Notes: generated from the sequence alone by a model not told the origin. A DNA stretch of 44,238 nt from Candidatus Xenobia bacterium (GCA_045863235.1 BTUM01000066.1:1-44238), one strand, 5' to 3'. Counted from the stretch's first letter, positions 11,286 through 35,265 are shown. A program made the numbers and translations.

Positions 11286-11810
11286 CGAGGTGCCTTTCAC
11301 GAGTCGACGGACCTAGTTGAAGTCGCGCCAGTAGACGACGCGCATCGAGTCGGTGGCATTGAGGAACTGGTTGAGGTCGAGCGAGAAACTGCCCCGGCGC
11401 ACTGCCTCGGATTTGGTGGCCTGATACTGCCTGTCCATCACCGAGAGCATCGAGCGATACTGGTCCTGACCCTCGCGAAAGAACTCTTCCCAGGAAACGT
11501 ACCGAGCGCCCCGGCTACCGTCCGGGTTTCGTCGGGTGGGAACCGGCCTGGATCCGTTCGCGGTCACGGCCTCCTCCAGCGAGGAGTAAGTTGCAGGACC
11601 ATAGGTAAAAGGTACCCTCTGCCCGTCCACACGCGAAAGGTCGAAGTGCCCGGTTTGCTTGTCGAAGAAGTCCTCAGCCTTCAGGCCCGCCGCCAACTGA
11701 GCCCCCCCTACGTTCCCCCACTGCTCTGCCCAAACCCCGGAATCTCCCACTCGAGCTTCACCGCCTCCGGGTCGAACACCACGTCGCAGTTGGTCAGCTT
11801 CATCTCCCCA
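10218..11810 (-). repeat. Copy B of the inverted duplication
   Basis: Reverse complement matches 1-1970. Confidence 0.95.
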
Positions 11811-12480
11811 CCTCCCGAGGCGGACCGGTGCACGAACGCTCCCACCAGCTTCAGATGGGACGCCTCCATCCCGGTCTCGGTATACACCAGCCCCCGAAAA
11901 TACGCCCCGCTCGAGCCGCTCAGGGTCACCTTCCCCCGCGCCACCACGGCGGCCATGTTGTTCGTGCTCAACGCACCCCCACCGGTCACCGTCACGTCCC
12001 CGGTGCAGATAATCGCCCCGCGCCCGGTCACCCCGCCGTTCACGGTCAGGTTCCCGTCCACATACAAGAGCCCGTTGCTCAAAGACAGCCCACTCACGTT
12101 CAGCATCAGGTCCCCCGAGCGGCGCGCCAGGCCGTTCACGGTCAGGCCCGGATAGGAAGCATCCAGCTGCCGCACCACCGTCGGATCGAAGCCCGGGTCG
12201 TAAGCGGCCAGCGGGATCAAGGGCAGAGCGACCGAGCTATGCCGCTCCTCCACCTGGCCCTCCACCGCGACGCCGGAACCACGAGACACAGACCCCACCG
12301 CCTTCACATCTCCAGTCACGCGGGTAGCTGGCCCGGTCAGGGCCACGTTCCCGTTCCCCGCGATATGCCCCGGCTTCAGCTCGCCCAGCGAGGACCCTTT
12401 CACCGAGTCCACCCCCGCCACCAGCATGGGCCCGGAGGCCACGATGCCCGATGACGAAGCGATGCAGTATTCGCTTCGCG
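11313..12480 (-). pseudogene. 5'-truncated, frameshifted beta-helix (PilX-like) protein gene
   Basis: ORFs 11708-12442 and 11313-11750 join if one base is added to the C5 run at 11715-11719. Contains LYVDGNLTVNGGVTGRGAIICTGDVTV-type repeats; no convincing start or N-terminal domain. Confidence 0.7.
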
Positions 12481-20470: not shown

Positions 20471-21082
20471 ATGAATGGTCTCCTGGGGGGGGCCGGCCTG
20501 CTGGTCGGATTGTTCCTGATTTTCCGGTTTGTGCTGCCGCGCATGCTTGCCAGCGCCAATGCCCAATCCCTTCTTTTTGTCTACGAAGCCAAGGCCAGTG
20601 TCCTGCGCGGCGCCGGGTTGGAGCTGCTTTCGATGGAGCCGATGGACGAGCCGCCCGAGGGCCAACTGGAGGGCCCCTGGGTCCGCCTGCGTTTGCGGGT
20701 TTCTCCCAGGGAGTGCAAGAAGGATGGCCTGCTCAAGTGGGCTCCCACCGATCTTGCGCTGATTCCGGCCGAGGAGGTCCGCGGCCGTCAACTGTCCATC
20801 GACCAGGTCGAGGAATCCACCGGTCCCCACGAAGTGTGCCTGGTCGAATGGGATCGAGAGCTGCAAGGCCCCGAGAACTCCTCCACGCGCACTTTCCGGT
20901 CCCCCAACAGCGGCGAGCAGGTCCCCGACAAGATCGTGGGCCCCGGCGTGGTCGAGATGGTGGCTCGTCTGCCGCGTCGGCACCAGAAGATGCGACTGCA
21001 TTACTGCCACGTTCTGGTCGGGTCGACTCTCGAGCTGGTGGGCGGGTCCCCTGTTCCAGAGCCTCTCGCAGCCGCCCGCTGA
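20471..21082 (+). CDS. Hypothetical membrane-anchored protein
   Basis: N-terminal TM helix and coding-like composition. Confidence 0.65.
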   Translation: MNGLLGGAGLLVGLFLIFRFVLPRMLASANAQSLLFVYEAKASVLRGAGLELLSMEPMDEPPEGQLEGPWVRLRLRVSPRECKKDGLLKWAPTDLALIPAEEVRGRQLSIDQVEESTGPHEVCLVEWDRELQGPENSSTRTFRSPNSGEQVPDKIVGPGVVEMVARLPRRHQKMRLHYCHVLVGSTLELVGGSPVPEPLAAAR

Positions 21083-21084
21083 GC

Positions 21085-22071
21085 CTATCCCAGAATCTCG
21101 CCCAGCCGCCCGCTGACCAGCACCCCCCCCAGCGCGTCGGCCACGGCCGGATGGTGGCTGTCCTCGTGGCGGTGCAAGAAGCCTTCCACGTCACTCCAGG
21201 ATTGGGGTTCCTCGGCCAGGTGCTCGGCCAGGGCCAGTACCCAGGCCTCGATGGGCACCTCGTCGCCCTTGCGGCCGTGGGGGAAGCCCGAGCCGTCGTA
21301 GCGCTCGTGATGAGCTTCCACGATGGGAGCCAGCTCGCGCAGCACCCGGCCCGAGCGGAGGAACTCGGCCCCGGCGACGGGGTGGCCCTTCTCCACGTCG
21401 CCCTCGAGCTGACCGGCCAGCACCAGCTTGCCCACGTCGTGATACAGCGCGCTGCGCCAGATCAGGTTGCGCGACTGGGCCGACAGGTCCATCAGCGTGG
21501 CCAGCTCGGTGGCCAGCCGAGCCACCCGCATCGTGTGGCCTCGCCTGCCCGGGGTCAGGCTCTCGCTGGCCCCCACCAGCAGATCCTCCACCCGCTGGGC
21601 GTAGGCCACCTGGTCTTCGGTGCGGCGGATGAACTCCCAGGCCACTCCGGCCGCCCGACCCAGGTGAAAGAGAGCCTCGGCGGTGGGTCGGTCGGGATCC
21701 TGGGGCAGGCCGACCACCACCAGCACCCCCACCAGGGCGCCGTAGAGCATCACCGGGATGCCCACGTTGACGGGGCCGGTGGTGCCCAGCCCGGGCACGG
21801 GCAGCCCGCGCCGGTCGAGGGTCAGCTCGAGATAAAGGGCCACACGGCCGGGCAGGGTCTCTTCGCCGAGAGGGATCTGGGTCTGGCTTTCCCAGGGGCG
21901 CATCAGCATGCCGACCTCGTTGCGGAAGCGGAAGAAGCGGGCCTGTCCCTGGCCGAGACACTCGACCGCCAGTTGCTCGAGATCGCGGGCAAAGGTCTCG
22001 CGGTTTCGGGCCAGCGAGAGCTGCTGCACAACCGAGAGCGGGTCGGCGCTGAGCCTGGCGGTGGTGGACAT
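21085..22071 (-). CDS. HD-GYP domain protein (cyclic-dinucleotide phosphodiesterase-like) with a GAF-like N-terminus
   Basis: Motifs GHTMRVA, YHDVGKL and HHERYDGSGFP. Confidence 0.9.
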   Translation of the reverse strand: MSTTARLSADPLSVVQQLSLARNRETFARDLEQLAVECLGQGQARFFRFRNEVGMLMRPWESQTQIPLGEETLPGRVALYLELTLDRRGLPVPGLGTTGPVNVGIPVMLYGALVGVLVVVGLPQDPDRPTAEALFHLGRAAGVAWEFIRRTEDQVAYAQRVEDLLVGASESLTPGRRGHTMRVARLATELATLMDLSAQSRNLIWRSALYHDVGKLVLAGQLEGDVEKGHPVAGAEFLRSGRVLRELAPIVEAHHERYDGSGFPHGRKGDEVPIEAWVLALAEHLAEEPQSWSDVEGFLHRHEDSHHPAVADALGGVLVSGRLGEILG

Positions 22072-22080
22072 GAGGCCTCC

Positions 22081-23319
22081 TTACATCTGGGCTTGCTGGC
22101 CGGTCGAGATGCCCAGAATGGGCAAGAGCACGCCCATCACGAACATCCCGACCACGCCGCCCACGACCACCATCATGGCCGGCTCGAGCACCGCCGTCAT
22201 GGCGGCGATCGTGGCGTCGATCTCGGCTTCGTAGTAGTCGGCCACCCTTTCGAACATCTCGGGCAGAGAGCCTGCCTCCTCCCCGATGGCCGCCATCTGC
22301 ACCATCAGGTCGGGAAAGATCTTGACCGACTCCAGCGTGTCCGAGATGCGGTCGCCATCCTGGATGCGGCTGGCCACCACCGACAGCGAGCGGGCCACCA
22401 CCAGGTTGCCGGCCGAGCCGGCCACCAGCGACAGGCTCTGCAGGAGCGGCACGCCGGATTTGAGCAGCTCGGAGAAGGCCCTGGCAAAGCGAGCCGAGGC
22501 CCCCTGCTGCACCAGGTCGTGGAAGAAGGGCACGTAGTACTTGCAGTAGTCGATCGTATAGCGTCCGGTGGGCGTCTTGCGGAAGAAGTGGAAGGCCACC
22601 CCCAGCACCAGGATCGCCACCAGCGTGAGGGCGATATTCTGGCCCGAGGAAACGAATCTGGAGGCCTGCATCAGCAGGTGGGTGAGGGGGTAATCGGCCG
22701 CGATGTTGAGCTTGGAGTCCTCGAACATGGGGGTGAAGAGGGGCATCAAGAAGGCTACCAGGGCGTAGGAAAGCACGCTGGTGAAGATCAGGATGAACAT
22801 CGGATAAGCCAGCGCCGAGGCGATCTTGCGCCGCACGGCCGCTTCCTTCTCCATCATCAAGGCCAGGCGGGCCACCGTCTCGGGCAGGTTGCCGCCCGCC
22901 TCGCCCACCCGCACCAGGTTGAGATACATCTCGTCGAACACCCGGGGGTGGTTGGCCAGGGCCTCGCTGAAGCGAGCGCCCTTTTGCAGATCCTGGCTCA
23001 CCTGGTCGAGCACCCGGCGCAGGCTCGGGCTCGAGTTGCGCCGGCGCAGCACGTGAATGATGCGCAAGAGCGAGAGGCCCGCCGCCAGGGTGGTGGCCAG
23101 CTGCCGGGTGAAGATCATCAGGACCTTTTGCGAAACGCCGAAGTCGAGGCCGAGCTGCTTCTCCTCGCTCTTGCGCGAGGCTTCCACCTCGGCCACCTCC
23201 AGCACGGTCAGGCCCTTGGCCTTCAGGTCTGCGAGCAGGGCGTGGTGGTCGTGGGCGCTGGTTTCGCCTTGCTGGGGTTTGCCCTGGGCGTCCACCGCCT
23301 TGTATTTGAATCGAGCCAT
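22081..23319 (-). CDS. pilC: Type IV pilus / type II secretion platform protein (PilC/GspF)
   Basis: Motifs FKYKAVD, FTRQLATTLAAGL, GEAGGNL, ALAYP, GEEAGSL and LEP. Confidence 0.92.
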   Translation of the reverse strand: MARFKYKAVDAQGKPQQGETSAHDHHALLADLKAKGLTVLEVAEVEASRKSEEKQLGLDFGVSQKVLMIFTRQLATTLAAGLSLLRIIHVLRRRNSSPSLRRVLDQVSQDLQKGARFSEALANHPRVFDEMYLNLVRVGEAGGNLPETVARLALMMEKEAAVRRKIASALAYPMFILIFTSVLSYALVAFLMPLFTPMFEDSKLNIAADYPLTHLLMQASRFVSSGQNIALTLVAILVLGVAFHFFRKTPTGRYTIDYCKYYVPFFHDLVQQGASARFARAFSELLKSGVPLLQSLSLVAGSAGNLVVARSLSVVASRIQDGDRISDTLESVKIFPDLMVQMAAIGEEAGSLPEMFERVADYYEAEIDATIAAMTAVLEPAMMVVVGGVVGMFVMGVLLPILGISTGQQAQM

Positions 23320-23331
23320 GACAGCTTCCCT

Positions 23332-23760
23332 TCAGCGCACGGTGTAGGTGGTGGTTGCCTGGCCGAAGGGGCCGGCTCCCTCCAGGAGGCCTTTCCAGCC
23401 GGTCGGCTCGCCCAGCTCGGGACGTTTCGTGGTCACCACCGCCTGCAGCCATTCCCGGCCGGACGGGCCCGTTTGCTCGAGCAACTGCCCGGAGTTGTCG
23501 CGTATTTGCAGAGTCTGTCCTGCATAGATCCGATCGTAGCTCGAGAACGTGCTGGGAACTGCGATCCGGGTCACACCCTCAGAATCGGTCCAGAGCAGGG
23601 TCAGATACCCGGTGATCTGGCTCTTGACCGAGATGGTCATGCGCTCGCCGATGGCGTACTCGCTCTTGTCGGTCTTCAACTTGACGGCCAGGGTGGCGCC
23701 TTCCAGGGGCAGCTGGGCCGTGGCCAGAGCGGTCAACAAGAGGCAGAGCAAAACTCTCAT
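23332..23760 (-). CDS. Secreted DUF4384-like protein
   Basis: Signal peptide; TDKSEYAIGERMTISV...GYLTL...GPSGREWLQAVVT. Confidence 0.8.
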   Translation of the reverse strand: MRVLLCLLLTALATAQLPLEGATLAVKLKTDKSEYAIGERMTISVKSQITGYLTLLWTDSEGVTRIAVPSTFSSYDRIYAGQTLQIRDNSGQLLEQTGPSGREWLQAVVTTKRPELGEPTGWKGLLEGAGPFGQATTTYTVR

Positions 23761-24863
23761 GCTTTTCGCCTGGGCAGGGCCACGGAGCCCACCACCACGC
23801 GCTCGCCGTCGGACACCACCTGGGCCGAGGAGGTGTCTGCCAGGCGAGGGGGCGTCAGGGTCAGGCGGTGGACGTTACCGCCCTCATCGGCCACCAGCGC
23901 TCCCTCCTCCAGGGCCAGGGGCGGGGCCAGACCGGGCCCTGGCTGGAAACTGGCCTGAGGCTGGCCGGCCTCGGTGGTGAGGGCGTAGACCGTGCTCTCG
24001 CTGCCCAGGAATGTGGCGCCGCTGGCGTCGCTGACCGGAGGAGTCTCCAGCTTCTCGGGGAGCTTGCGGCTCCAGACGGGCTGTCCGTCCGCGTCGAGGC
24101 GCAGCACGGTCTCCCCCGAGCGCACCACGCCCTCGGGGTTGATCTGGGGTGTGACGCTGCCGGGACGGTGGCTCCAGAGTTTCCCCCCGGTCTTCGGGTC
24201 AAGGGCCAGCACGTCTCCGAACATGCGGGGCACGAACACGGTGCCCTCGGGGCTGGTGGCCAGCTTCCCCAGGTAGTCGCCCACCGGGTAACGCCAGGGG
24301 CTCTTGCCGTCCGGCTCATAGCAGTGCAGCACGTGGTCGTTGCCGTTGAAGAAGTAGAGATTGCCCTCCGGCCCTCCCCCCAGCGGTCCGCGAATGATCA
24401 CCTGACCCATCAAGGGACGCTCGAAGCGCGAGACCCCGGTGCGGCTGTCCAGGTTCACGATCAGTCCGATCTCGTGACGACTGATCAGGCCCAGCGTGTG
24501 ATTGCCGGCCAGGATGGGGGGATCCGACAATCGTCCACGCACCTCACGCTCCCAGCGCGGGTTGCCCTCGGGGTCCAGGCTGCTCACGCGGCCCTCGCGC
24601 GCGGCCAGGTAGAGGTTGCCCTCGGGATCGACCAGGGGAGGGTGCAGCTCGCCCTCCAGCTTGCGCGTCCAGCGCAGCGTGCCGTCGCTGTGGCGCGCGG
24701 TCAAGGTTCCGTCCGGCTCCAGGGCGTAGGAGGAGCCGCCCGGTCCGGCTACCAGCGTAGCTCGGGCCGGTCCGGGATGGCTCTCGGCCGGCTCCAGGCG
24801 CGGGTAGTCCCCGCCCAGGAGGTAGTGGGCCGTTCCCTGGAAGGAGGCGCGAACAGGCAGCAT
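23757..24863 (-). CDS. PQQ-like (BamB-type) beta-propeller protein with the shared C-terminal motif
   Basis: Repeated LDPxGxxRW blades; no signal peptide; ends QVVSDGERVVVGSVALPRRKA. Confidence 0.85.
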   Translation of the reverse strand: MLPVRASFQGTAHYLLGGDYPRLEPAESHPGPARATLVAGPGGSSYALEPDGTLTARHSDGTLRWTRKLEGELHPPLVDPEGNLYLAAREGRVSSLDPEGNPRWEREVRGRLSDPPILAGNHTLGLISRHEIGLIVNLDSRTGVSRFERPLMGQVIIRGPLGGGPEGNLYFFNGNDHVLHCYEPDGKSPWRYPVGDYLGKLATSPEGTVFVPRMFGDVLALDPKTGGKLWSHRPGSVTPQINPEGVVRSGETVLRLDADGQPVWSRKLPEKLETPPVSDASGATFLGSESTVYALTTEAGQPQASFQPGPGLAPPLALEEGALVADEGGNVHRLTLTPPRLADTSSAQVVSDGERVVVGSVALPRRKA

Positions 24864-24902
24864 CCTTCTCAGGCTAGGGGGAGGGGCTGAAGGATGTCTG
24901 AA
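24864..24902 (-). promoter_or_regulatory. Shared heptamer-repeat promoter, site 1
   Basis: TTCAGAC-atcc-TTCAGCC-cctccccc-TAGCCT-gagaagg-ATG. Confidence 0.75.
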
Positions 24903-24912
24903 TGACCTGCGA

Positions 24913-24941
24913 TTGACGGAGGCAGGGGGTCATAGTACAAT
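24913..24941 (+). promoter_or_regulatory. Sigma70 promoter of the vapBC operon
   Basis: TTGACG-N17-TACAAT, 7 nt before the ATG at 24949. Confidence 0.85.
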
Positions 24942-24948
24942 TTGCACT

Positions 24949-25188
24949 ATGAAAGCCATATCGATTTCCGTATCGGAGTCGGACTACGAAGCCTTCCGTG
25001 TCTACGCAGCTCGTCATGATCGCTCGATAGCCGAGTTGATCCGGGAGGCGATGGCGTTGTACCGCAAGGAAAGGCTCACGCCTATGGAGCGGTTGGAACG
25101 AATCCCCGTGGTCCACGGGCTGAAGCCACTCGGGCCTCTCCCAACCAGAGAAGACATCTATGATGAGATCACCTCGCGGCATTTCTGA
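24949..25188 (+). CDS. RHH/CopG antitoxin (VapB-like)
   Basis: MKAISISVSESDYEAF...RSIAELIREAM; coupled to the downstream PIN gene. Confidence 0.85.
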   Translation: MKAISISVSESDYEAFRVYAARHDRSIAELIREAMALYRKERLTPMERLERIPVVHGLKPLGPLPTREDIYDEITSRHF

Positions 25189-25643
25189 TGTCCGACATCG
25201 TGGTCGACGCGAACATTCTCATCTACGCGCGGGTATCGGACTTTCCCGAGCACGAGTCGGCCCGGCGCGCGCTTGAGGCTGCGCTGGTGGATGCAACGGG
25301 GCGCGTCGTCCTGACGGTTGGTATCTTGCACGAGGTTCTGCACATCCTTACGGATGGCCGACGTTTTGGCAATCCGATGTCGATGGCAGATGGGATCGAT
25401 TTCATACGCACTTACCTTGGTCGGACCAACATTGCCGTTCTGCCCACCCAGGAAGTCGACCTGGAGAACGCCCTGTCCCTCGTGGAGCAGTTTCGCCTCG
25501 GCAGAGGACGAATCTCGGACGCCCTGCTTGCAGCCACTGCCCGCCGCTACGGAATCCGCCGTCTGATGACCCACAATGTGCGCGACTTCGCCGTCTTCCC
25601 CTTTCTGGAGGTCATCGACCCGATCGTTCCTACCGCCGGATAG
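25188..25643 (+). CDS. vapC: VapC PIN-domain toxin
   Basis: Motifs VVDANILIYA, E, DALLAATA and THNVRDF. Confidence 0.9.
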   Translation: MSDIVVDANILIYARVSDFPEHESARRALEAALVDATGRVVLTVGILHEVLHILTDGRRFGNPMSMADGIDFIRTYLGRTNIAVLPTQEVDLENALSLVEQFRLGRGRISDALLAATARRYGIRRLMTHNVRDFAVFPFLEVIDPIVPTAG

Positions 25644-25746
25644 GGCGGACGTTTCGGAAGAGACTGTAGTCTGCCGGCAACGTGCGGCCTTGCCCCCTGA
25701 CACCCCCGAGATGCAGAGGAGACCGCCCTGTGGTTGACTGCCTCGC

Positions 25747-26532
25747 ATGGACGCAATCCGCTATCGACCCTTGAACGACTGGTGGCAGTCCGACGGACGC
25801 CGCTTCGACTCCACCTCCGAACTGCTGGCGGCTGACCTGCCCGAAGGCGCTGCCGCGACCTATCACTTTCAAGACCAGCCCGACACCGATACAGCCGTCG
25901 TCCCGGGCTCTCTGAGGGAGGTTGCCGGGCACCTCTTCTTTGCCCCCGCCCAGAGCCCGGACCTGGTCGACCTTTCGCTCTACCAGGCTGCTGAGCAACC
26001 GCCCGAGCCTGAGCTCCCGCCCCGGCCGGTCTGGCAAGACCGCCTGGAGGGAGCGGCGGCCGGGGCGGCCCTTCCGGTCAGCACTCTGATTCCCATTGTC
26101 GGGGTCTTTCTGCCCGCCAGCATGGGCGCCGGTGTCGGCAAAAGGGTGGGCGGCCGGAAGGGCGGCCTGGTGGGCGCGGCCACCGGGGTCGCCGCCACGG
26201 TGGGAACGGTGGTGCTCGGTCAGGCCGGGCTGTTGGGGCTGGCCGCCGCCGGCGCCTTGAGCGCCGCCGCCGGAGCCGTGGCCGGGCCCCTGCTCGTCCC
26301 CAGGATGCGTCGCTGGTCGGCTCACGTCGAGCAGGTCAAGGACCAGTGGTGGGCCCCCTACTGCCAGGACTACGATCTCAAGCCTCCGGCCACCGACCCG
26401 ACCCGACGCCAGGTGGTGGAGATGGCCGCGGCAAGCCAGCCGGCCGGTACCGGGGTGGTGGAGGAGGAGGATCGGGTCCAGGTGGGGGGAGTCTGGATCA
26501 AGCGGCAGGCTGATGCAAAGCCGGCTGGGTAG
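25747..26532 (+). CDS. Hypothetical glycine-zipper membrane protein with the shared C-terminal motif
   Basis: Central Gly/Ala hydrophobic stretch; ends GVVEEEDRVQVGGVWIKRQADAKPAG. Confidence 0.8.
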   Translation: MDAIRYRPLNDWWQSDGRRFDSTSELLAADLPEGAAATYHFQDQPDTDTAVVPGSLREVAGHLFFAPAQSPDLVDLSLYQAAEQPPEPELPPRPVWQDRLEGAAAGAALPVSTLIPIVGVFLPASMGAGVGKRVGGRKGGLVGAATGVAATVGTVVLGQAGLLGLAAAGALSAAAGAVAGPLLVPRMRRWSAHVEQVKDQWWAPYCQDYDLKPPATDPTRRQVVEMAAASQPAGTGVVEEEDRVQVGGVWIKRQADAKPAG

Positions 26533-26610
26533 TTCACCTTCCGGTAACAACCTGGTCTCGTGGTCGTGTTTGAGTGGGGGCAAGAAACTGACCCCACAAG
26601 CGAGGATCCA

Positions 26611-26901
26611 ATGCACGAACCAATTGAGCTGGTTGCCCTGGTGGGCAGCCAGAAGGTGACCAATGTCCGCATGTCGAGCCACGGCGTGCTGGCTTCCGAC
26701 CAGGCCCGGCGGGTCTGGGGGCGCAGCGATCACAGTCTGCTTTCCGAGGAGGCTCTCTCCTCGGTCGAGGGCGGAGCCTCCCTGCAGTTCATCGAGGCTC
26801 TGCGCAGCACCCTCGGCAGCGACCTGGAGGCCCGCGGGCGCCGGCAGCGCCGGCGCACTCCCTCCTGGAGAGTTCCTCGAGACTTCAGCCGGCCATCTTG
26901 A
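26611..26901 (+). CDS. Small hypothetical protein
   Basis: GAGGA precedes the ATG; no recognisable motif. Confidence 0.4.
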   Translation: MHEPIELVALVGSQKVTNVRMSSHGVLASDQARRVWGRSDHSLLSEEALSSVEGGASLQFIEALRSTLGSDLEARGRRQRRRTPSWRVPRDFSRPS

Positions 26902-28546
26902 AGGCCAGAGCCGCGCCAGCCAGGTAAGCCTGCTCGAACTGGGCCACCAGGTCCGGACTCTCGCCCCGCAGGGCCGCCTGCCCGGCCTCGCTGGCCACCT
27001 GGGCCTGGGGGGCGGGCTCGAGCCCGCGGGCCTTCTCGAGCAGGGCGGCATTCTCGCCGGCCGGCTGCTTGAGGGTGTGCACCAGCACGGCGTCCACCGC
27101 TCCGGCCAGCATTCCGAACTGAAGAACCTGCACGGCTGTCTCCAGGCCCACCTTGCCCAGGGCCGGGGCGACTCCGGCCCGCAACTGCCCGGCCGCCTGG
27201 GAGAGCTCGCTGACCGACTGCTCGGGCGAGCCTTTGGCCTGCTTGAGCACATTGGCGAGCTGCTCGTGGGTGCCGGACAGGTGCTTCATGCCGGCCTGCT
27301 CGAGCTGGGGGTTGATCCCCCCGAGCTGCCCGGCCACCTCGGCCATCTCGGCCATCAGCTTGAAGAGCGCCGGATCCTGCGCCTGCAAGCGGTCGGGCTG
27401 CAGGTGGAAGTAGGCGAAACCCTCGGCCAGGTACTCCTTGAGGTTGGCCCGCGAGTAGTTGCTGATGGCCTGTGGGGCGGTGTGGTAGGCCCGGTCGAGC
27501 CGCGTCTTGAAGCTCTCATACCACTCGGGGGCGCGGCGGGCCAGGAAGATTTCCAGGGCGTGCCCCAATTCGTGCACCGGGGTCTTGCTGCCGGTGGCCC
27601 GATCGCGAACCGCAACCTTGTTGGCGTCGTAGAACAGCTGGCCGTTGAACTGCTCGTCCTCGGAGCTGTTGAGGTCGGTGACCCGGCCGGCGTCCTGGTG
27701 CCAGAAGAACAGGCTGCCCACATCGTGCTCGTCGAGCAGCTGCCGGTTCTCGTCGCTTCCGTAGAAGTAGAGCGCGGGAACCAGGATGGTATGCTTGAGG
27801 GGATCGATGGCCAGCTGCTCGTCTCGCTCGGGTCGCAGGCTCTCGGGCAACGCCTGACGCACTTCGTTCTGGGCTTCCTGCAGGCGCGACCCGTTGATGG
27901 CCGCCACCAGCTCGTAGAACGTCTGCTTCTCTTCCGGGGTGCGGGCTCCGTGCACGATGGCCATGCCCTCGAGGCTGACCGAGTCGCGATTGAGGGCCGA
28001 GTCGACCGGGGCCCCCGGATAGAGAGCCCGGTGGGGATGGGCGTTGTAGACCGTCAGCGGGATCTGGTTTCCGGTCAGGACCGAGGCCAGCCAGTTGCGA
28101 TTCTGGCGGCGCAGCTCAGCGGCCTGCTCGGGTTTATCGGCGCCGGCCAGCTGGCCGCGCCACTCCGAGCGCATCTCGTGCAGTGCGGCGGCCTTCTCGC
28201 TCAATTCGCCCAGCCGGGCCTGGTAGGCCTCAAGATTCTGATTGCGCAGCAGGCCCACCTCGCCCAGCTCGTCGCCCGGATGCAGGGTGACGAATTGCAG
28301 CCCCTCCTGCTGGGCCAGCCGCAGGGCTCCGGTGCCCACCTTGGAGAGCTCGCGCTCCAGGCCCACCTGGTCTTCGGGGCGAGTGGTTCTCTCGTCCAGC
28401 ATCAGCTGCACCAGCTCGCGGCGGCGGGCCCCGATGGGGTCTTGAACGGCGCTCTCGAAACGGTCGCTCGGGCTGGAGGCGGCCGCCTGGGGGCGACCCG
28501 CCAGGAGGGTGGAGACCGGGCTCAGGCTGCTGACTTGCAGGTTCAT
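26885..28546 (-). CDS. Zinc metalloprotease of the anthrax lethal factor / Pro-Pro endopeptidase type; effector-like
   Basis: HELGH followed by NYSRANLKEYLAEGFAYF; low-complexity N-terminus; start chosen from the promoter position. Confidence 0.8.
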   Translation of the reverse strand: MNLQVSSLSPVSTLLAGRPQAAASSPSDRFESAVQDPIGARRRELVQLMLDERTTRPEDQVGLERELSKVGTGALRLAQQEGLQFVTLHPGDELGEVGLLRNQNLEAYQARLGELSEKAAALHEMRSEWRGQLAGADKPEQAAELRRQNRNWLASVLTGNQIPLTVYNAHPHRALYPGAPVDSALNRDSVSLEGMAIVHGARTPEEKQTFYELVAAINGSRLQEAQNEVRQALPESLRPERDEQLAIDPLKHTILVPALYFYGSDENRQLLDEHDVGSLFFWHQDAGRVTDLNSSEDEQFNGQLFYDANKVAVRDRATGSKTPVHELGHALEIFLARRAPEWYESFKTRLDRAYHTAPQAISNYSRANLKEYLAEGFAYFHLQPDRLQAQDPALFKLMAEMAEVAGQLGGINPQLEQAGMKHLSGTHEQLANVLKQAKGSPEQSVSELSQAAGQLRAGVAPALGKVGLETAVQVLQFGMLAGAVDAVLVHTLKQPAGENAALLEKARGLEPAPQAQVASEAGQAALRGESPDLVAQFEQAYLAGAALAFKMAG

Positions 28547-28585
28547 CAGCTGAAGAATACCGCCACAGGCTGAAAAGGGGCTGAA
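28547..28585 (-). promoter_or_regulatory. Shared heptamer-repeat promoter, site 2
   Basis: TTCAGCC-cctt-TTCAGCC-tgtggcgg-TATTCT-tcagctg-ATG. Confidence 0.75.
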
Positions 28586-28662
28586 CTTCACGGGAGGCAT
28601 CCAGTGACCGGGACGAGAAAGCGAGGGAACCTCACGGCCCCAGGAAAGGAACCTTCATCCGG

Positions 28663-29928
28663 ATGAGCATTCCCAGGCTAGAGAAGCTGGTCAGCACCCG
28701 GCTGCCCATCGAGGAGGGGCAGTTTCGCCTCAGCCTCTACCGCAGCGGTCTGAACGGCTGCGACCACCTGATGCTGGTCCACGGAGAGGTGCGAGGACAG
28801 CAGGGAGTGCTCACGCGCATCCATTCCGAGTGCTTCACCGGCGATGTGTTGGGCTCGCTGCGTTGCGACTGCGGGGCCCAGCTGGAGGCTTCCCTCCAGC
28901 TCATCGCTCGGGCTGGCCGGGGGGTGCTGCTCTATCTGCGCCAGGAGGGTCGCGGCATCGGGCTGGCCGACAAGTTGCGCGCCTACAACCTGCAAGACCA
29001 GGGTTTCGACACCGTGGACGCCAACGCCGAGCTCGGTCATGAGCCGGACGCGCGCGACTACACCGACGCGGTCTTGATGCTGCGGGATCTGGGCGTCGAG
29101 TCGGTCGACCTGATCACCAACAACCCCACCAAGATCGAGGCCCTGGAAGGGATGGGCCTGCGCGTTCGCGCCCGGGTTCCCACCACGCTGGCGGTCAACC
29201 CGGAGAACCGGGCCTACCTCGATACCAAGGCCCAGCGCATGAACCACCTGCTGCAGCTGGCCCCCGAGTCGGCCGCTCCGCTGGAGGAGCTGGAAGGCTG
29301 GCTGAACGCCCACCCGATTCCCGCCGATCGACCCCACGTCACGGTGACCTACGCCCAGAGCCTGGACGGCAGCATCGCCGAGCAGCGCGCTCTTTCGGGC
29401 TACGAGTCCCAGCTGATGACCCACCGCCTGCGGGGCTGGCACGACGGCAGCCTGGTCGGTATCGGCACGGTGTTGTCGGACGATCCGCGGCCCACCGCGT
29501 CAACCCTGATCGTGGCCGACAGCCAGCTGCGCCTGCCCCTTCAGGCCCGCCTCTGGTCCAACCCCGGCGGCCTGATGGTGGCCGGCGCGGTGGGAGCCGA
29601 CCCCGAGAGACGCCGGGCCCTGCAAGAGCTGGGTGCCACGGTGCTGGAGCTGCCCAGGAACGGAGGCTACGGGGTGGATCTGGCCAGCTTGCTGCGCACT
29701 CTGCACCAGCGCGGCATCCGGCGATTGATGGTGGAGGGCGGCGCCCGGGTGCTCAACGCCTTCTTGCGCGAGCGCCTGGCCGACGCCGCCGTGGTGACCA
29801 TCGCCCCGCGCTGGGCGGGCGGCCCGGGCTGCGTCTCGCCGTCCGTGAACCGGCCGCTTCCGCAGCTGGTGGAGCCGGTCTGGCACAAGCTGGGACAGGA
29901 CATGGTGGTCTGGGCCTCGCTGGCCTGA
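28663..29928 (+). CDS. ribA: GTP cyclohydrolase II fused to a RibD C-terminal reductase domain
   Basis: RIHSECFTGDVLGSLRCDCG, QEGRGIGL and TNNP, followed by YAQSLDG, VGIGTVLSDDP and LMVEGG. Confidence 0.92.
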   Translation: MSIPRLEKLVSTRLPIEEGQFRLSLYRSGLNGCDHLMLVHGEVRGQQGVLTRIHSECFTGDVLGSLRCDCGAQLEASLQLIARAGRGVLLYLRQEGRGIGLADKLRAYNLQDQGFDTVDANAELGHEPDARDYTDAVLMLRDLGVESVDLITNNPTKIEALEGMGLRVRARVPTTLAVNPENRAYLDTKAQRMNHLLQLAPESAAPLEELEGWLNAHPIPADRPHVTVTYAQSLDGSIAEQRALSGYESQLMTHRLRGWHDGSLVGIGTVLSDDPRPTASTLIVADSQLRLPLQARLWSNPGGLMVAGAVGADPERRRALQELGATVLELPRNGGYGVDLASLLRTLHQRGIRRLMVEGGARVLNAFLRERLADAAVVTIAPRWAGGPGCVSPSVNRPLPQLVEPVWHKLGQDMVVWASLA

Positions 29929-29931
29929 GCT

Positions 29932-30372
29932 ATGTTGATTCTCTTGTTCTTGCTGCTGCTCGTCGTGCCGGTTGCGGCAGAGTCCCAGGTGATGCTGGCG
30001 GTGGACGGGGTGGTCTGCGGCTCGCAGTTTCTCGATCCTGAGGTCAATCATCCGGCCGGGGGAGAGTTCAACCGGTCCCCCCGGTCGAATGGGGGCGCTT
30101 CCTATGACGACCTGAAGACCGAGACGCATGTGGAAGTCAGTCCGGAGGAAAAGATCACGCGCGTCCGAGGAGCCGAGTTGTCCGTGGGCGGGAAGCTGCT
30201 GGTGCGCCGGGGAGAGACTCTGGCACTTTATGAGAAGCGTCTGGGCAAGCTGCTGCCGGGCCAGAAGAGCCCGTTTCAGACCCGGTTCGGCAGGGTCAAG
30301 GTGGACTTCAAGCTCGAGAAGGGGAAGGTCGTGGACATCGACCTGCGCTTCGTTCCAGGGCAGTCGCGCTGA
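29932..30372 (+). CDS. Secreted hypothetical protein
   Basis: Signal-peptide-like N-terminus. Confidence 0.65.
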   Translation: MLILLFLLLLVVPVAAESQVMLAVDGVVCGSQFLDPEVNHPAGGEFNRSPRSNGGASYDDLKTETHVEVSPEEKITRVRGAELSVGGKLLVRRGETLALYEKRLGKLLPGQKSPFQTRFGRVKVDFKLEKGKVVDIDLRFVPGQSR

Positions 30373-30494
30373 TTTTGTTGTGATTGCTCGCCCTGGTTGG
30401 GGCGCCTTATTCCGGACTCTTGAGCCAGTTGTCAGTCATCCCCGGTGACGATGACCGCGACGATGATGAAGGCGAAGACTGCCACTGAACATCC

Positions 30495-30950
30495 GTGGAG
30501 CACATCAACCGGTCCGAGCAAGACTTCTGGCGGTCCTGGTGCCGCCTTGCTCACGCTCCGGTGCGGAGGCCTCGAGCCGGGAGTCACCCCGTCATCCTCA
30601 AGCTGCACCCGAAAGATGGGGCCCGCACCGGTCCGAGGCCCCAGATACGGATTCGATCCGTGGACGGGGATGAGAGCCAGGCCCAGTTGAGGCTCAATCG
30701 TACCCTGGTGAAGCTCGATGGGATCGAGATACCCCTGGAGCAACTGGAGATCAGGGTACGCTATCGGCAGAAGCATAACAACGCCGAGGACGTCTGGATG
30801 CGCTGGCGTCCAACCGATCCGCTCCAACCGGGTCCGCACGTTCTCGAGGTGAGGCTACAGGATGGAGCGGGCAACGCCACCTCGCAGGTCAGTCGCTTCA
30901 CCTCGACAGGAACGTCGTGTCCCGGTGACGACCAGGACTGGAACTGGTAG
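30495..30950 (+). CDS. Hypothetical protein with an Ig-like C-terminal domain
   Basis: Contains PLQPGPHVLEVRLQDGAGN...SRFT. Confidence 0.55.
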   Translation: MEHINRSEQDFWRSWCRLAHAPVRRPRAGSHPVILKLHPKDGARTGPRPQIRIRSVDGDESQAQLRLNRTLVKLDGIEIPLEQLEIRVRYRQKHNNAEDVWMRWRPTDPLQPGPHVLEVRLQDGAGNATSQVSRFTSTGTSCPGDDQDWNW

Positions 30951-31025
30951 CTGCGTCGCCTGGTCTTACCGCTCATTTGGGGCTACACCCCTCGGTCGGG
31001 GTTTGCAGCCATAGTATGCAGTCTT

Positions 31026-31077
31026 GAGTTGACAGCTACTGCGTCCGCTCATGAGCAGACACCGAGCCTGTCAACTC
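31026..31077. repeat. Long intergenic inverted repeat
   Basis: GAGTTGACAG...CTGTCAACTC with an inner GCTCATGAGC palindrome. Confidence 0.7.
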
Positions 31078-31143
31078 TGGGGCACCTCCATCCACTTGGG
31101 TGCTGAATCCGGCTGACTGCGTCTCGTGCTGCTACAATCAACC

Positions 31144-34100
31144 ATGATGCACGAATTGCTCGGCAGCCCGCGATTGTCTCTGCGTTTGATGGCCCTGCGC
31201 GTCCTGAGCGAGAAGAAGGCGGTCGAGCAGCTGCTGCTCTCGCCAGTGGACCATCCCGCGCTGGCCTGGGCCCTGGCCCGCGCCGCCGAGCCCGAGGAGC
31301 TGCGCTGCTCCGGGCGCGAGATGGTGCGCCTGGCCCTCTTCCTGCGCAGCCGCGAGCTGCGCCGGGAGACGCGCGGGCCCGGCCTGGAACGCTGCCTGAA
31401 GGGCCTGCGTTCTGCGACGTTCTGCATCACCGCCTTCGCGTGGGCGGCCCGGACCATCGAGCTCCACAAAGAGCGCGCCATCTCTGGATTGATGGATGTC
31501 TTGCGGCGCCGTGAGCGCCGCCCCGAGCCGGCCGAAGCCGCCGCCTGGGCGCTTGGCAAGCTAGGGCGAGCCGTGGTCGGGGAACTGGAGGAGGCCTTCC
31601 GCCAGCCCTCGCGAGGAACGCGCTTCTGGCTCTTTCAGGTCGTCTGGTACCTCGGGCCCCAGGCACGAGCGCTGAGTCGTCAGGTGGCCCATTACCTGCC
31701 CGATCCGGTGGCTGAGGCGGCCCTCCTGGCCATGCAGGAGGCGGGATCGCTGGCCGCGGTCGAGGCGCTGGCACGGGTGCAGACACCTGTCTGGCTCGAT
31801 TCCGGCTCGTTGGCAGCGCTGGCCGAGCTGCTCTATGGCTTCGACACGCCCCTGCGGGTGCGTGCCGCTCACGCCCTGTCGGGCTTCGGGCCGGCCCGGT
31901 CTGAGGCGGTCGCGCTGCTGGCCTCCCTGGTCACCGATCCCGAGCCCGCCGTGCGCGAGGCGGTGGCCGTCTCGCTGGTCGAGCAGCGCGCCCCCGCCCG
32001 TTTGCTCCTGCCCCAGGTGCTCGACCAGGTGCCCGAGGTCGCCTCCTTTGCCCGCCACTATTGCGAGGTCCAGGGAGACCCCGAGACTCTGATTCTGGAG
32101 GAGCTCTTGCACGGTACGCCCGAGCGCCAGCGCTGCGCGGTCAGCCTGCTGAGCCCTTCCGTGCTGCGGCGCCTGCCGCTGGAGAGCTGGCTTTCCGCCC
32201 TGAAGAGCCCCGAGCCTGCGGTCCGTCTGGCCCTCGCCGGCAGGCTGGCCCAGGAACCCGGGGCGTGGCCGGCCCTGCGCCCGCTGTTGAGCGACCCCGA
32301 TCCTGAGGTCCGCCGACGGGCCGCGAACGCCCTGTCCGAGGACCCGGACCCGGAGACCCTGGCCCTCCTGCGCGGTCTGCTCGACGACCCCGACCCCGTG
32401 GTCTTCATGGCTCCGGTGCGCGCCCTGAGCCACCGGGGCACCCCCGAGGATATCGCCCGCATCTTTTCCGATCCCCACCCCGTGGTGCTGAGCTGGGTGG
32501 CCGATGTGCTGCGCCAGCTGAAGACCATGCCGGCCGCCCTGCTCGCTGGCGTTCGCAGCGGTCTGGTGCAGCATCCGAGCATTCTGGAAGTGGCCGCCGA
32601 GCTGACCGATGACCTGCCCGAGGAGGCCCTGGTCCGGCTGATCTGGTTCGGTCGTGGTCGGGAGGGAGCCCTGCGGGCCTGGTCAAAAAAGGCCAGCCAG
32701 GACAAGTTGCTCAAGCTGCTGACCCACGAGGACGAGGAGGTGCGCTTTCAGGTCGCCAGCTGGCTCGAATCCATTCTGAACCGCCGGCCCGACTATGCTG
32801 ATGGCCTGCTCTGGCTCGGGGAGTCCAGCCCCCGCGTGCGCCAGGCGCTGGAGAGCTGCCTGAGGCACATGGCCGGCGACGAGAAGCTGCCCGAGTGGCT
32901 CGCCTGCGCCGGGCCGATCGGAGTCGGCGCCGCCATGCGCGCTCTGGCTCGGCACTGGGACGAGGTCGGGCCCACCCCGGCGGCGCTTCTGGCGGTGGCC
33001 GCGGCGGTCGATCGGCTGGGTTCGGAGGTGCAGGAGGCGCTCGAGCATTTACTGGCCCATCTGCCCCCCTGGCCACTGCCTATCGAGCCGAATTCAGCAG
33101 TGAGCCACCTCCCGGCTCACCTCTGGCCGGCCGTGCGCCACTGGCTCACCCATTCCGAAGCCAGCCTGCGCCGCGAGGGCCTGCGGCTCGCCCGCCTGCT
33201 GTGGACGAACGGCCCCGGGGAGGAGATGCTTCTCGCCGTTGTCCCCGCCCTGGAGGACGCCGAGGCCGAGGTGCGCGAGGCCGCCGCGCGCTGCCTGGCG
33301 GGAGCGCCGGCTCGGGCCGCTGCGGCTCTGCGCGAGCGCCTGGATGACCCCGCTCCGCAGGTGCGTCTACGCGTGCTCGGGTCGCTGGCGGCCCTGGGCG
33401 ATTTCCCCTCGATCGAAGCATTCTGGCTCGATCCCGACCCGAACGTGCGCTCGACGGTGACCGGGCTGCTGCTGCACTACGGCCACCTGCCCGCCAACCT
33501 GGTGGATAGCCTGCGGGCCGGGCGGGAGGTGACCCGGGAGTCCTTGCTGCTGGCCCACAGCCTCTTGTCCACCGTCGAGGAGAGGGAGCTTCTGGCCAGC
33601 GCGTTCATACATTCCTCGAGCGAGTCGCGCGAGGTGCTGGTGGAGACGGTGGCCGGCTATGGGGTGATCGGCCTGGAGGCGCTGGACCTGGTCCAGGAGG
33701 ACGCAGCCCTCAGCCTGGAGGTCCGGCGGGCCGCCGAGGCAAGCCTGGCTCGGTTGGCTCGGCGCACCCCGGGTGGCCTGAGGTGGCTGCTGGCCGAGCG
33801 CCGGCAGCGATCACCCGCGCTCGACGATGCTGCCATCTGGTTGCTGGAGGCGGCGGGAACCTCTCGTCTCCAGGAGCTGGCCGGCGAGCTCGAGGGTTTG
33901 ACCGAGAACCGCAATGAGGAGCTGGCCGCGGCAGCCGCCCGGGCTTTGAGGCGACTGGGCCGTCTCGAGGCAGGCCTGGACAGCCCCCTCGCTCTCGTGC
34001 CGCGCTCCGCTCTGCGGGCCCTGACCGAGCTGTCTCTGGACCAGATCGAGCTGGGCCTGCGCCGCAAGCTGGCCGAGCTGGCCGATGGCGATCCGGACGA

Positions 34101-34641
34101 GGAGGTGCGTGAGCTGGCCCGCGAGGGGCTGCTTCAGATCGACCACAAGATCCTCGAGCATGCCCTCAATAGCGGGGACGATCTGGCCGCCTTGCGTCCG
34201 CTCATCCCCCCCGAGCACGTGGAGTCCCTGTGGAAGCAGACTCCACTGCGCCGCCTGCTCCCCGACCTGATCCAGGACGTTACGACTCAGGTCGAGTTGA
34301 TGGCCCGCGGCCTGCAAGACCCCGACCGCGAGGTACGCCTGGCCTTCGCCCGTCGCCTTTCGCGGGCGGGCAGCTTCTTGCCCGAGGTCATCCCGGTCTT
34401 GCTCGAGCAGAGTGACCATGACCTCAGTGGGCTGCTGACGACGCTGGGCGAAGCAGCATTGCCTCCCCTGCGAGATGCCCTGGAGCATTCCGACCCGGTC
34501 ATCCGCGAGCGTGCCTGCCGGGCAGTTGGCCTGGCCCGCGACCAGGCTGCGCGGCCCAGGCTGGAGGAACTGGCCAGGACTGACCCGGTCGGCGGCGTGC
34601 GCCTCGCTGCCAGCGACGCGCTGGAGAGAATTCGGCCGTAG
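31144..34641 (+). CDS. HEAT-repeat protein
   Basis: Many LxDPDPxVRxxAAxAL repeats; extended -10 TG-c-TACAAT lies just upstream (start at 31144 or 31147). Confidence 0.9.
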   Translation: MMHELLGSPRLSLRLMALRVLSEKKAVEQLLLSPVDHPALAWALARAAEPEELRCSGREMVRLALFLRSRELRRETRGPGLERCLKGLRSATFCITAFAWAARTIELHKERAISGLMDVLRRRERRPEPAEAAAWALGKLGRAVVGELEEAFRQPSRGTRFWLFQVVWYLGPQARALSRQVAHYLPDPVAEAALLAMQEAGSLAAVEALARVQTPVWLDSGSLAALAELLYGFDTPLRVRAAHALSGFGPARSEAVALLASLVTDPEPAVREAVAVSLVEQRAPARLLLPQVLDQVPEVASFARHYCEVQGDPETLILEELLHGTPERQRCAVSLLSPSVLRRLPLESWLSALKSPEPAVRLALAGRLAQEPGAWPALRPLLSDPDPEVRRRAANALSEDPDPETLALLRGLLDDPDPVVFMAPVRALSHRGTPEDIARIFSDPHPVVLSWVADVLRQLKTMPAALLAGVRSGLVQHPSILEVAAELTDDLPEEALVRLIWFGRGREGALRAWSKKASQDKLLKLLTHEDEEVRFQVASWLESILNRRPDYADGLLWLGESSPRVRQALESCLRHMAGDEKLPEWLACAGPIGVGAAMRALARHWDEVGPTPAALLAVAAAVDRLGSEVQEALEHLLAHLPPWPLPIEPNSAVSHLPAHLWPAVRHWLTHSEASLRREGLRLARLLWTNGPGEEMLLAVVPALEDAEAEVREAAARCLAGAPARAAAALRERLDDPAPQVRLRVLGSLAALGDFPSIEAFWLDPDPNVRSTVTGLLLHYGHLPANLVDSLRAGREVTRESLLLAHSLLSTVEERELLASAFIHSSSESREVLVETVAGYGVIGLEALDLVQEDAALSLEVRRAAEASLARLARRTPGGLRWLLAERRQRSPALDDAAIWLLEAAGTSRLQELAGELEGLTENRNEELAAAAARALRRLGRLEAGLDSPLALVPRSALRALTELSLDQIELGLRRKLAELADGDPDEEVRELAREGLLQIDHKILEHALNSGDDLAALRPLIPPEHVESLWKQTPLRRLLPDLIQDVTTQVELMARGLQDPDREVRLAFARRLSRAGSFLPEVIPVLLEQSDHDLSGLLTTLGEAALPPLRDALEHSDPVIRERACRAVGLARDQAARPRLEELARTDPVGGVRLAASDALERIRP

Positions 34642-34642
34642 G

Positions 34643-34680
34643 GTCAGCTTTCTTTCAGCCCCTCCCCCTAGCATGGTCTC
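34643..34680 (+). promoter_or_regulatory. Shared heptamer-repeat promoter, site 3
   Basis: GTCAGCT-ttct-TTCAGCC-cctccccc-TAGCAT-ggtctc-ATG; 19 nt are identical to site 1. Confidence 0.75.
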
Positions 34681-35265
34681 ATGCAGATCCTGCCCGCCCT
34701 GAGGCTTGCCCGCCCGACCGTTGCCACGACGCTCTCCGAGCACAGCCACGAGCTCGAGAGGCGGGAAGGGGACCTGCGCGAGCGCGAGAGCGAGCTGGAC
34801 TCGCAGGCTCGGGCTCATCGCGACCAGATGAAGGCTCTGCAGGCCAGCGGACGCAAGCTGCACAAAGGGAAGAACAAGGCGCTGCCTTTCCTCATCGGGA
34901 GCTTTGCCACGTTCGTCGGAGGCATGCTCGGGGGAATGATCACCCAGCAACCGGCGCTGATGTACGTCGGCATGGCGGGCCTGCTGGGGACGGTGGTCTC
35001 GGCTGCCTTCGTGCAGGCTTCTCAGGACCACATCGACGAGATGGGCGAGAAGTTCGCCCAGCACCAGGAGACCACTCAGGCTCTGGATGGCCAGAAGTCG
35101 GAAGTCGAGCGCCAGCTCCAGAGCACCCGCGAGAGCCTGGAGGGGAGCCGCCAGCTGGCCGCCATCGCCGAGCCTCCCGCGCCGGCCGGGCTGGCCGAAG
35201 GCAAGTCGGGCGTTACGGTGGCCGGCGTGGTGGTGCGTCGGCGCGACCCGTCAGCGGGTGCTTGA
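34681..35265 (+). CDS. Coiled-coil / two-TM hairpin protein with the shared C-terminal motif
   Basis: Coiled coil, bilobed hydrophobic hairpin, coiled coil; ends GLAEGKSGVTVAGVVVRRRDPSAGA. Confidence 0.8.
   Translation: MQILPALRLARPTVATTLSEHSHELERREGDLRERESELDSQARAHRDQMKALQASGRKLHKGKNKALPFLIGSFATFVGGMLGGMITQQPALMYVGMAGLLGTVVSAAFVQASQDHIDEMGEKFAQHQETTQALDGQKSEVERQLQSTRESLEGSRQLAAIAEPPAPAGLAEGKSGVTVAGVVVRRRDPSAGA

Follow-up and report, generated by a model that had tools for sequence, protein, structure and literature searches.

A TTCAG direct-repeat promoter class in a Candidatus Xenobia bacterium, its candidate SARP-domain activator and a flagellin-less export machine

Direct-repeat boxes are known to mark type III effector genes genome-wide: the PIP box of HrpX and the hrpII box of HrpB belong to AraC-family activators, and have a 20-bp repeat period and a far longer distance to the -10 element than the box described here. 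The latter is built on a repeated pentamer, TTCAG, and stands before three genes in a 44,238-nucleotide stretch of DNA from a Candidatus Xenobia bacterium, which we analysed at its full length (the window, contig C66 of genome G000). The genome (8.36 Mb, 66% GC, 97.6% complete) is that of an uncultured member of the class Xenobia (UBP9) in the phylum Vulcanimicrobiota (Eremiobacterota).

Like the Xenobia box, those of the Streptomyces activators AfsR and PapR2 are pairs of direct repeats with an 11-bp period that overlap the -35 region. The upstream repeat of afsS, TTCAGC at -38 to -33, lies 26 nt before the -10 element, as it does in Xenobia, and 8 bp separate the end of a SARP box from the -10 element (PMC10936776). 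The letters are also similar in the PapR2 consensus GTCAGSS, whose TCA core is common to PhoP boxes (PMC7040171). Whereas SARPs were called exclusive to actinobacteria in one review (PMC10972967), the Xenobia system is non-actinobacterial, and in contrast to the Streptomyces SARPs it has ~364 dispersed, mostly leaderless targets instead of one gene cluster. The rhizobial tts box, GTCAG-N5-CG-N2-AG-N10-TA (PMC4990936, PMC12442349), is in the same register with nearly the same letters, and drives type III effectors and a pilin. However, the second repeat is TTCAG in Xenobia, the strict tts consensus has no match in G000, and three tts boxes of NGR234 score only 13.7, 2.1 and 1.7 bits on the Xenobia matrix. 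Compared to the 11 active tts boxes that serve 35 open reading frames in HH103 (PMC4990936, PMC12442349, PMC3973906), G000 has ~379 sites, and a conserved orthologue of TtsI is lacking. As for export, Lysobacter enzymogenes OH11 is described as secreting enzymes toxic to other microbes through a flagellin-less flagellar type III system, a precedent for such an exporter (PMC7688988).

The three promoters of the window lie where a sequence-only reading of this DNA had placed them, with the same strands and spacings. Promoter 1 (24864..24902, minus strand) has TTCAG at 24902-24898 and 24891-24887 and the -10 element TAGCCT at 24876-24871, 7 nt before the ATG at 24863, and is predicted to be leaderless. 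Promoter 2 (28547..28585, minus strand) has TTCAG at 28585-28581 and 28574-28570 and TATTCT at 28559-28554, 7 nt before the ATG at 28546. Promoter 3 (34643..34680, plus strand) begins with GTCAG at 34643-34647, followed by TTCAG at 34654-34658 and TAGCAT at 34669-34674, 6 nt before the ATG at 34681. They score 28.2, 30.8 and 30.1 bits and rank 119, 49 and 71, respectively, among 379 genomic sites. Within the window, they are the only exact matches to KTCAGMY-N4-TTCAGCC and the only sites of at least 14 bits; with up to two mismatches, that pattern has 8 matches compared to 2.45 expected, a count reached by none of 100 shuffles.

Genome-wide, the motif reads TTCAG-N6-TTCAG-N10-TANNNT, with its information in both TTCAG copies and the -10 element. 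The repeat unit is therefore the pentamer and not the fixed heptamer of the sequence-only reading: heptamer positions 6-7 hold 0.04-0.18 bits, the second repeat is exactly TTCAGCC in 64 of 379 sites, and the genome scan proposed with the heptamer pattern catches only 8 of them. TCAG-N6-TTCAG-N10-TANNNT has 69 matches in the genome, compared with 0-3 at each of 41 other spacer pairs. An iterated matrix finds 379 sites of at least 17 bits versus 14 in the reversed genome; shifted-spacer matrices yield 43-162, such versions retaining part of each true site. A third repeat occurs at position -11, -22 or +22 in 1, 4 and 0 of the 379 sites, respectively. The promoters thus share the activator-type geometry of SARP promoters that had been proposed for them, with repeats at an 11-bp period overlapping the -35 region at a fixed distance to the -10 element, and the 3' heptamer ending 8 bp before it.

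The predicted enrichment before start codons is also evident. Among 394 sites of at least 16 bits, 362 are intergenic, and an ATG follows the -10 element at 6 nt in 91 cases and at 7 nt in 59 (150/394); GTG occurs 38 times at 6 nt. The sites map to 364 genes, 250 of them leaderless and 114 leadered, with 11 sites left unassigned. As foreseen, the starts of the former are predicted to be leaderless: the -10 element lies 6-8 nt before the start codon, and a Shine-Dalgarno sequence is found in 15 of the 250 genes, compared to 65 of 85 leadered genes with leaders of 15-80 nt. A purine is present at the predicted +1 position in 89 of the 114 leadered genes. Since the purpose-built codon model that called the 7,173 genes slightly favours starts preceded by a -10 element, the leaderless claim rests on the ATG count, which is independent of the caller. 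Taken as a genome-wide class, these promoters are real with near certainty.

The shared 19 nucleotides of promoters 1 and 3, pointed out in the sequence-only reading, are real, and would be expected if the sites were remnants of small repeats or mobile elements. However, only 4 of 71,631 site pairs share at least 18 nt, this pair being one of two at 19 nt. Moreover, orthologous promoters in the three congeneric genomes G001-G003 keep both repeats and the -10 element in 7 of the 7 cases found while their spacers drift: promoter 1 is retained in all three with altered spacers, promoter 2 in G002, and promoter 3 again in all three. The 19-nt identity is thus incidental or recent and not a conserved feature. 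As the sites are also locked to start codons in strand and distance, an origin from repeats, mobile elements or chance matches has a negligible probability.

Beyond the genus, all 22 genomes of the families f1, f2 and f4 hold 15-167 sites with up to one mismatch, compared to 0-4 for the controls; the counts are 74-167 in five f1, 15-162 in 16 f2 and 27 in the f4 genome. In family f3, five genomes of 3.7-4.7 Mb have 2-7 such sites (controls 0), and 14 small genomes have 0-3 (controls 0-2). From genome to genome, the f3 sites are retained, four of them in front of the orthologue of regulon gene C87:4268. Across 25 f3 loci, five of the ten targets with a G000 homologue match a regulon gene, and in G007, G013 and G040 eight of ten do so (30 of 67 exact sites); the base rate is ~5% in both comparisons. 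In a 151-genome sample of the phylum, the motif is above control in f12 (15-27 versus 1-6), G045, G059 and G097, whereas 82 f14 genomes show background counts. None of the claims made here depends on the unpublished genome G122. Site counts outside the class are 15 versus 2 in the control for G045, 13 versus 0 for G059, 25 versus 4 for G063 and 3 versus 1 for G091.

The activator of these promoters is very probably a winged-helix protein, judged from the promoter architecture. The sequence-only reading placed its gene outside the window, and the suggested search for SARP- and OmpR-type regulators indeed gave a candidate elsewhere in the genome, an 821-residue protein with REC, HD, TPR, winged-helix and BTAD domains (G000:C19:72632-75097; hereafter C19). 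A SARP candidate thus exists as had been deduced from the geometry; the geometry alone, though, does not fix the activator family, because the box of TtsI, an OmpR-type protein, has the same register. C19 is encoded by a single-copy gene, and its SARP domain is 69-78% identical across the order and 58% in f4, which belongs to another order. It was found in 16/16 f2, 5/5 g8/g9 and 1/1 f4 genomes. Of the motif-bearing genomes among the 41 analysed, only G001 and G003 failed to yield it; nor was it found in any of the 14 small, motif-free genomes. The two f1 cases are due to gaps in the assemblies, since the 18-kb region is missing as a whole from G001, and in G003 the contig ends ~0.9 kb before the gene. 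The recognition helix and wing are almost invariant, with all 16 helix residues identical in G030 and G009.

The predicted model of C19 (predicted local distance difference test score, pLDDT, of 92.8) resembles AfsR, with a Z-score of 20.8 and a root-mean-square deviation of 3.5 over 240 residues, and EmbR, with a Z-score of 19.7, whereas the next non-SARP matches are TPR proteins with a Z-score of 12.5. The predicted fold is the ODB and BTAD arrangement of AfsR. In alignment register, C19 keeps W74, P79, S91, R94, K95 and the acidic residues at 71, 76 and 246. Compared to AfsR, however, its SARP domain is C-terminal, behind REC, a degenerate HD-GYP and TPR. In motif-bearing G030, only two SARP proteins were found, one of them C19, along with four strong OmpR regulators, three of which have orthologues in motif-free genomes. 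Four of the five motif-bearing f12 genomes have a single SARP match, which groups with C19 in a quick tree (Shimodaira-Hasegawa-like approximate likelihood ratio test, 96) and shares 10 of its 16 helix residues. In addition, orthologues of the histidine kinase C117:16979 adjoin the C19 orthologues in G007, G009, G013 and G040, which makes this kinase a likely partner of C19. A regulon gene with a 29-bit site lies directly upstream of the kinase gene in G000 (C117:16979-19573), a possible feedback loop. Taken together, conservation, distribution and predicted fold suggest that C19 is probably the activator of the TTCAG promoters.

The same promoter class may instead be served by another activator, namely an OmpR-type protein like TtsI, a second SARP clade (C31:52020, C101:267) or several paralogues, an alternative that we consider rather unlikely. 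The likeness of the tts box in register and letters (PMC4990936) favours an OmpR-type protein, and G000 has 14 strong OmpR-type matches; however, its best match to TtsI, C27:33169 (36%), is not conserved in G007, G030 and G040, which have no close match (39-44%), and a TtsI orthologue was rejected as the activator. Another OmpR regulator, C4:205130 (L203:5133-5825), has a DNA-binding domain that is 81-95% identical across the class. Yet this regulator can be accounted for by a second abundant 11-bp repeat, of which it is a likely reader. C4:205130 and C14:98130 persist in 4/4 of the motif-free genomes checked and C4:32828 in 3/4, and they were likewise set aside. The second repeat (GTTAACA or TTTACA type) lies near ~290 gene starts genome-wide, including that of the flgB operon, and within the window at 7146-8537 (plus), 5982-7046 (minus) and 26611-26901 (plus). 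The gene of an ATPase-TPR-SARP protein, G000:C31:52020-54737 (L050:2023-4737), is 14 bp behind a regulon gene, so that its product might act at a second tier of regulation, and the helix is conserved in its clade. However, members of this C31/C101 clade were not found in f3 or in G007, G017, G031 and G035, four genomes with 82-99 sites; as it was not found in 4/6 motif-bearing g4 genomes, the clade was rejected too. Two further pointers gave no lead: none of 29 OmpR and SARP genes checked has a site of at least 12 bits directly upstream, and synteny with stand-alone FlhA C-terminal-domain genes was uninformative. About a dozen proteins of G000 combine REC with a C-terminal SARP domain.

A reader of another kind, either an alternative sigma factor or a non-winged-helix adaptor for which TTCAG is a shifted -35 element, is highly improbable. 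The fixed distance to the -10 element, the missing third repeat and a regulon of sigma-regulon size would fit it, whereas two equal repeats one helical turn apart, together with an ordinary TANNNT element, match solved activator complexes. A single sigma region 4 reads one element, which weighs against it as well.

Many of the target proteins share a C-terminal tag, V-x-V-G-G-V-x-hydrophobic followed by basic residues. A profile of the tag finds 190 proteins with no internal control hits, and 125 of these are in the regulon (odds ratio 51), 119 of them leaderless; conversely, 119 of the 250 leaderless targets are tagged. The tag has no Pfam family among the 26 members searched and no usable match in the Atlas. 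The expected enrichment upstream of tagged genes, and with it a regulon that includes tagged proteins, is thus borne out, although the regulon comprises ~364 genes and not a handful. The motif is class-wide in Xenobia, whereas the tag, by profile matches, is largely confined to the genus: f1 has it in abundance, g8/g9 and f4 have few cases (1-19 matches), and f2 has no convincing one (0-4 matches, E-values above 0.08). Since f2 has a large regulon without it, tag and promoter are separable, and the tag was rejected as a definer of the regulon outside this genus. Two more tagged genes of the window, at 25747-26532 (plus) and 15936-17930 (minus), are outside the TTCAG regulon.

The N-termini of the targets are rich in P, S, Q and N and poor in charge. 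Sec-like hydrophobic N-termini are found in 19 of 364 targets, compared to 1011 of 3790 in the reference set, and an N-terminal classifier reaches an area under the curve of 0.87 versus 0.68 for an internal control. In a Pfam sample of 79 of the 364 targets, taken from the densest regions at a cut-off of 1e-6, 51 have no family. The 28 others include seven PQQ propellers, three acyltransferases, peptidase domains of the M48, C1 and InhA types, and SLT, NlpC/P60, endonuclease, phosphodiesterase and phosphatase domains. The box thus groups several hundred orphan proteins as presumably regulated together; in a suspected predator, they are probably weapons. A predatory life has been proposed for a related family by Paoli et al. 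from genome features, the family being motile per automatic annotation (PMC9259500).

A candidate route for such proteins is encoded by a complete flagellar-type export and basal-body cluster (G000:C27:54348-79219, L001/L002). It contains flgB, flgC, fliE, fliF, fliG, fliH, fliI, fliJ, a lytic transglycosylase gene, fliK, one rod/hook gene, fliM, fliN, fliO, fliP, fliR, flhB, flhA and two genes that are fliQ-like in size and position only. The cluster is flagellar: rod genes are present, models of FlhA, FlhB, FliP, FliR, FliI and FliF outscore the Sct models, and none of the Sct core proteins scores above its flagellar counterpart, as would mark an injectisome. Among the rows considered in the TXSSCAN sheet of PMC9259500, type III secretion and flagellar matches are given as 'no_decision'. 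The family of FlhA, the export gate, is matched in 41/41 genomes, in 36 of them at full length. By contrast, flagellin and MotA were not found in G000 or 32 other genomes of the 41; both were found in the same eight genomes only. Like Lysobacter enzymogenes OH11, Xenobia has thus kept flagellar export genes without flagellin. It differs from OH11 in that the system, by its gate gene, is class-wide, lacks MotA and is accompanied by an Hrp-pilin-like gene family, and that eight Xenobia genomes also hold a separate true flagellum. Several stand-alone genes for the C-terminal domain of FlhA are found per genome (in G000, C80:28012-29436, C3:26973-28175 and C1:377670-378254). One of them is conserved in the class and in most loci checked adjoins a gene for a coiled-coil protein with an N-terminal helix-turn-helix (C80:30060); these FlhA-like proteins could be substrate-sorting adaptors.

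Directly behind the C27 cluster, three tandem genes encode an identical 81-residue protein, which is conserved class-wide and predicted to form one long helix. Its language-model feature scores in the Atlas are 0.91 and 0.90 for clusters that include HrpA and 0.88 for an HrpE-like one; because HrpA makes up just 23-24% of the cluster members, the likeness to Hrp pilins is only a lead. Each of the three gene copies has its own, different promoter, with a TTCAG box on the third only, whereas the flgB operon and the first copy carry the GTTAACA-type repeat. A nearby 473-residue protein also ends in a pilin-like helix, and at least three more close pilin paralogues are encoded elsewhere in G000. 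As the machine carries the GTTAACA repeat, a two-tier design is suggested, in which it is under one regulator while the cargo and one extra pilin copy are under another. In this respect, the Xenobia box differs from tts boxes, which drive apparatus operons, and its machine is flagellar-type and not Rhc. Judged from their N-terminal composition and the absence of another export signal, most targets probably leave through this type III machine.

On balance, we favour the reading that the TTCAG promoters are switched on by a winged-helix pair, probably of C19, and that the ~364 products are largely cargo of a flagellin-less, motor-less type III system. It draws on the motif with its fixed spacing, its placement before start codons and its conservation, on the cargo-like character of the products and on the content of the export cluster, together with the observed conservation of C19 and its predicted SARP fold. 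In the proposed mechanism, a signal would lead to phosphorylation of the receiver domain, which would gate the switch; it would probably arrive via the histidine kinase encoded next to the C19 orthologues of four relatives. Two C19 SARP domains would then occupy the 11-bp repeats in head-to-tail order, covering the -35 region, and bring in the holoenzyme with the housekeeping sigma factor, by analogy with AfsR. Transcription would start ~7 nt after the -10 element, which for two thirds of the targets is at the AUG or adjacent to it. This would give hundreds of mostly leaderless mRNAs, and many of the encoded proteins would be directed to the motor-less type III machine by N-terminal export signals.

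Several observations speak against parts of this reading. Regarding C19, both base-contacting residues of AfsR, T88 and R92, are replaced, by Ala and His, which bears on the kinship to the AfsR readout and not on the fold. C19 has no motif site upstream and no visible autoregulation, and G000 encodes 21 other SARP-domain proteins, 22 in all. Three motif-bearing genomes, G045, G059 and G063, have no C19-like match at 1e-25 among at most 17 candidates scored per genome. Conversely, G091 has a C19 orthologue (49%) yet 3 sites versus 1, G066 likewise has a relative but few sites, and the g8/g9 genomes have C19 at 75-77% identity but only 2-7 one-mismatch sites. Moreover, the co-distribution of C19 and motif is confounded, because small genomes lose many regulators. 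As to the starts, four RNA runs consisted of assembled contigs, whose near-even coverage revealed no start sites. On the side of export, the N-terminal classifier was trained on the regulon itself and not on proven substrates, and of 769 proteins with a high N-terminal score only 221 are in the regulon. Two transporters (MFS, nucleoside) and a helicase among the sampled targets are plainly not export cargo, although some of these may be wrong gene assignments by the gene caller. In addition, control of the core export operon and of the relatives' pilin genes by the box was rejected, since none of the 38 loci inspected has a convincing TTCAG site, the best scoring 17.0 bits in an AT-rich stretch.

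Alternatively, the regulon may be a SARP-driven programme for a life stage such as attack, attachment or starvation, with an incidental type III link and with proteins that stay in the cell or exit otherwise. Besides the machine operon without the motif, and the transporters and acyltransferases among the targets, it is in keeping with a gate gene and pilin kept in small genomes without the regulon, and with a tag missing from f2 despite the large regulon there. However, the targets, which taken together lack Sec signals and have a common low-complexity N-terminus, include extracellular-type enzymes (SLT, NlpC/P60, nuclease and peptidases), and one pilin copy carries its own TTCAG box. We thus regard such a programme without export through the machine as unlikely.

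Each of the three promoters of the window precedes a distinct type of gene. Promoter 1 precedes the gene of a 368-residue PQQ-type β-propeller protein (23757..24863, minus; Pfam PQQ_2, E-value 1e-19), which carries the C-terminal tag at 23763-23798 (25.4 bits with the tag hidden Markov model, HMM) and is one of 18 paralogues in the regulon by family clustering. Three followers on the same strand with gaps of at most 40 nt (21085..23760) are probably co-transcribed from promoter 1, encoding a 142-residue exported protein (23332-23760), a PilC/GspF protein (22081-23319, Pfam T2SSF) and an HD-domain protein (21085-22071, Pfam HD), all on the minus strand. Promoter 2 precedes the gene of a 553-residue predicted zinc metallopeptidase without tag (26885..28546, minus), which has HExxH at residue 325 (27560-27574), an E-containing motif at residue 371 and a type III-like N-terminus (N-terminal score 0.88). 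The sequence-only reading had called it lethal-factor-like; the HExxH is present, but Pfam ATLF (E-value 2.9e-5) reaches 24.3 bits, short of the curated cut-off of 27.4, and Peptidase_M90 (E-value 3e-4) is below its cut-off as well. Promoter 3 precedes the gene of a 194-residue orphan (34681..35265, plus) with the tag at 35212-35244 (tag HMM 29.2 bits) and an N-terminal score of 0.81. It is predicted to consist of a coiled coil, a hydrophobic hairpin and a second coiled coil before the tag, and a scan of residues 3-194 found no Pfam family.

Several other features of the window were observed. Between the promoter 2 region and promoter 3, a HEAT-repeat gene (31126-34641) is mostly or wholly absent from the G001 and G002 alignments, which gives it the appearance of a variable insertion directly before promoter 3. 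A stretch of ~55 nt at 31025-31080 has many matches of 81-94% in G001 and G003 and is probably an intergenic repeat similar to repetitive extragenic palindromic elements. The segments 2-1973 (plus) and 10146-12442 (minus) form an inverted near-duplicate gene pair, consisting of a Pro-rich β-propeller lipoprotein gene and its upstream gene, of which the second copy carries internal deletions or frameshifts. A third promoter class, GG ~18-20 nt before CGAA(C/T), the latter 13-17 nt before the start codon, is found at ~269 mostly ordinary genes and 10 tagged ones, in the window at 15936-17930 (minus) and 20471-21082 (plus). From its sequence, it looks like an extracytoplasmic function-type sigma promoter with leaderless starts.

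The promoter architecture itself is already known from SARP and tts boxes. In the open-access literature, we found nothing on this motif, its regulon or this secretion system in Xenobia. As far as that literature shows, three aspects are new: a master regulon of ~5% of the genome in Vulcanimicrobiota, the pairing of a candidate regulator with its site, and a connection with a flagellin-less exporter that is class-wide. The common TCAG-repeat register in AfsR, TtsI and Xenobia suggests, by analogy, a recurring winged-helix solution for switching on attack programmes. More tentatively, and with the balance somewhat against it, the Xenobia flagellar basal body might have become an injectisome independently, with its own Hrp-like pilus, and a class-wide REC-HD-TPR-SARP master activator might fire several hundred mostly leaderless effector genes via a tts-box-like promoter; the TTCAG box would then serve to list the effectors of an uncultured, probably predatory class. 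If the favoured reading is true, the regulon would be a SARP-type master regulon outside actinobacteria. It would also provide a regulator and site that can be tested as a pair, in a class for which hardly any regulatory biology exists, and flagellum-derived secretion without filament or motor across the class would bear on how often injectisomes arose from flagella.

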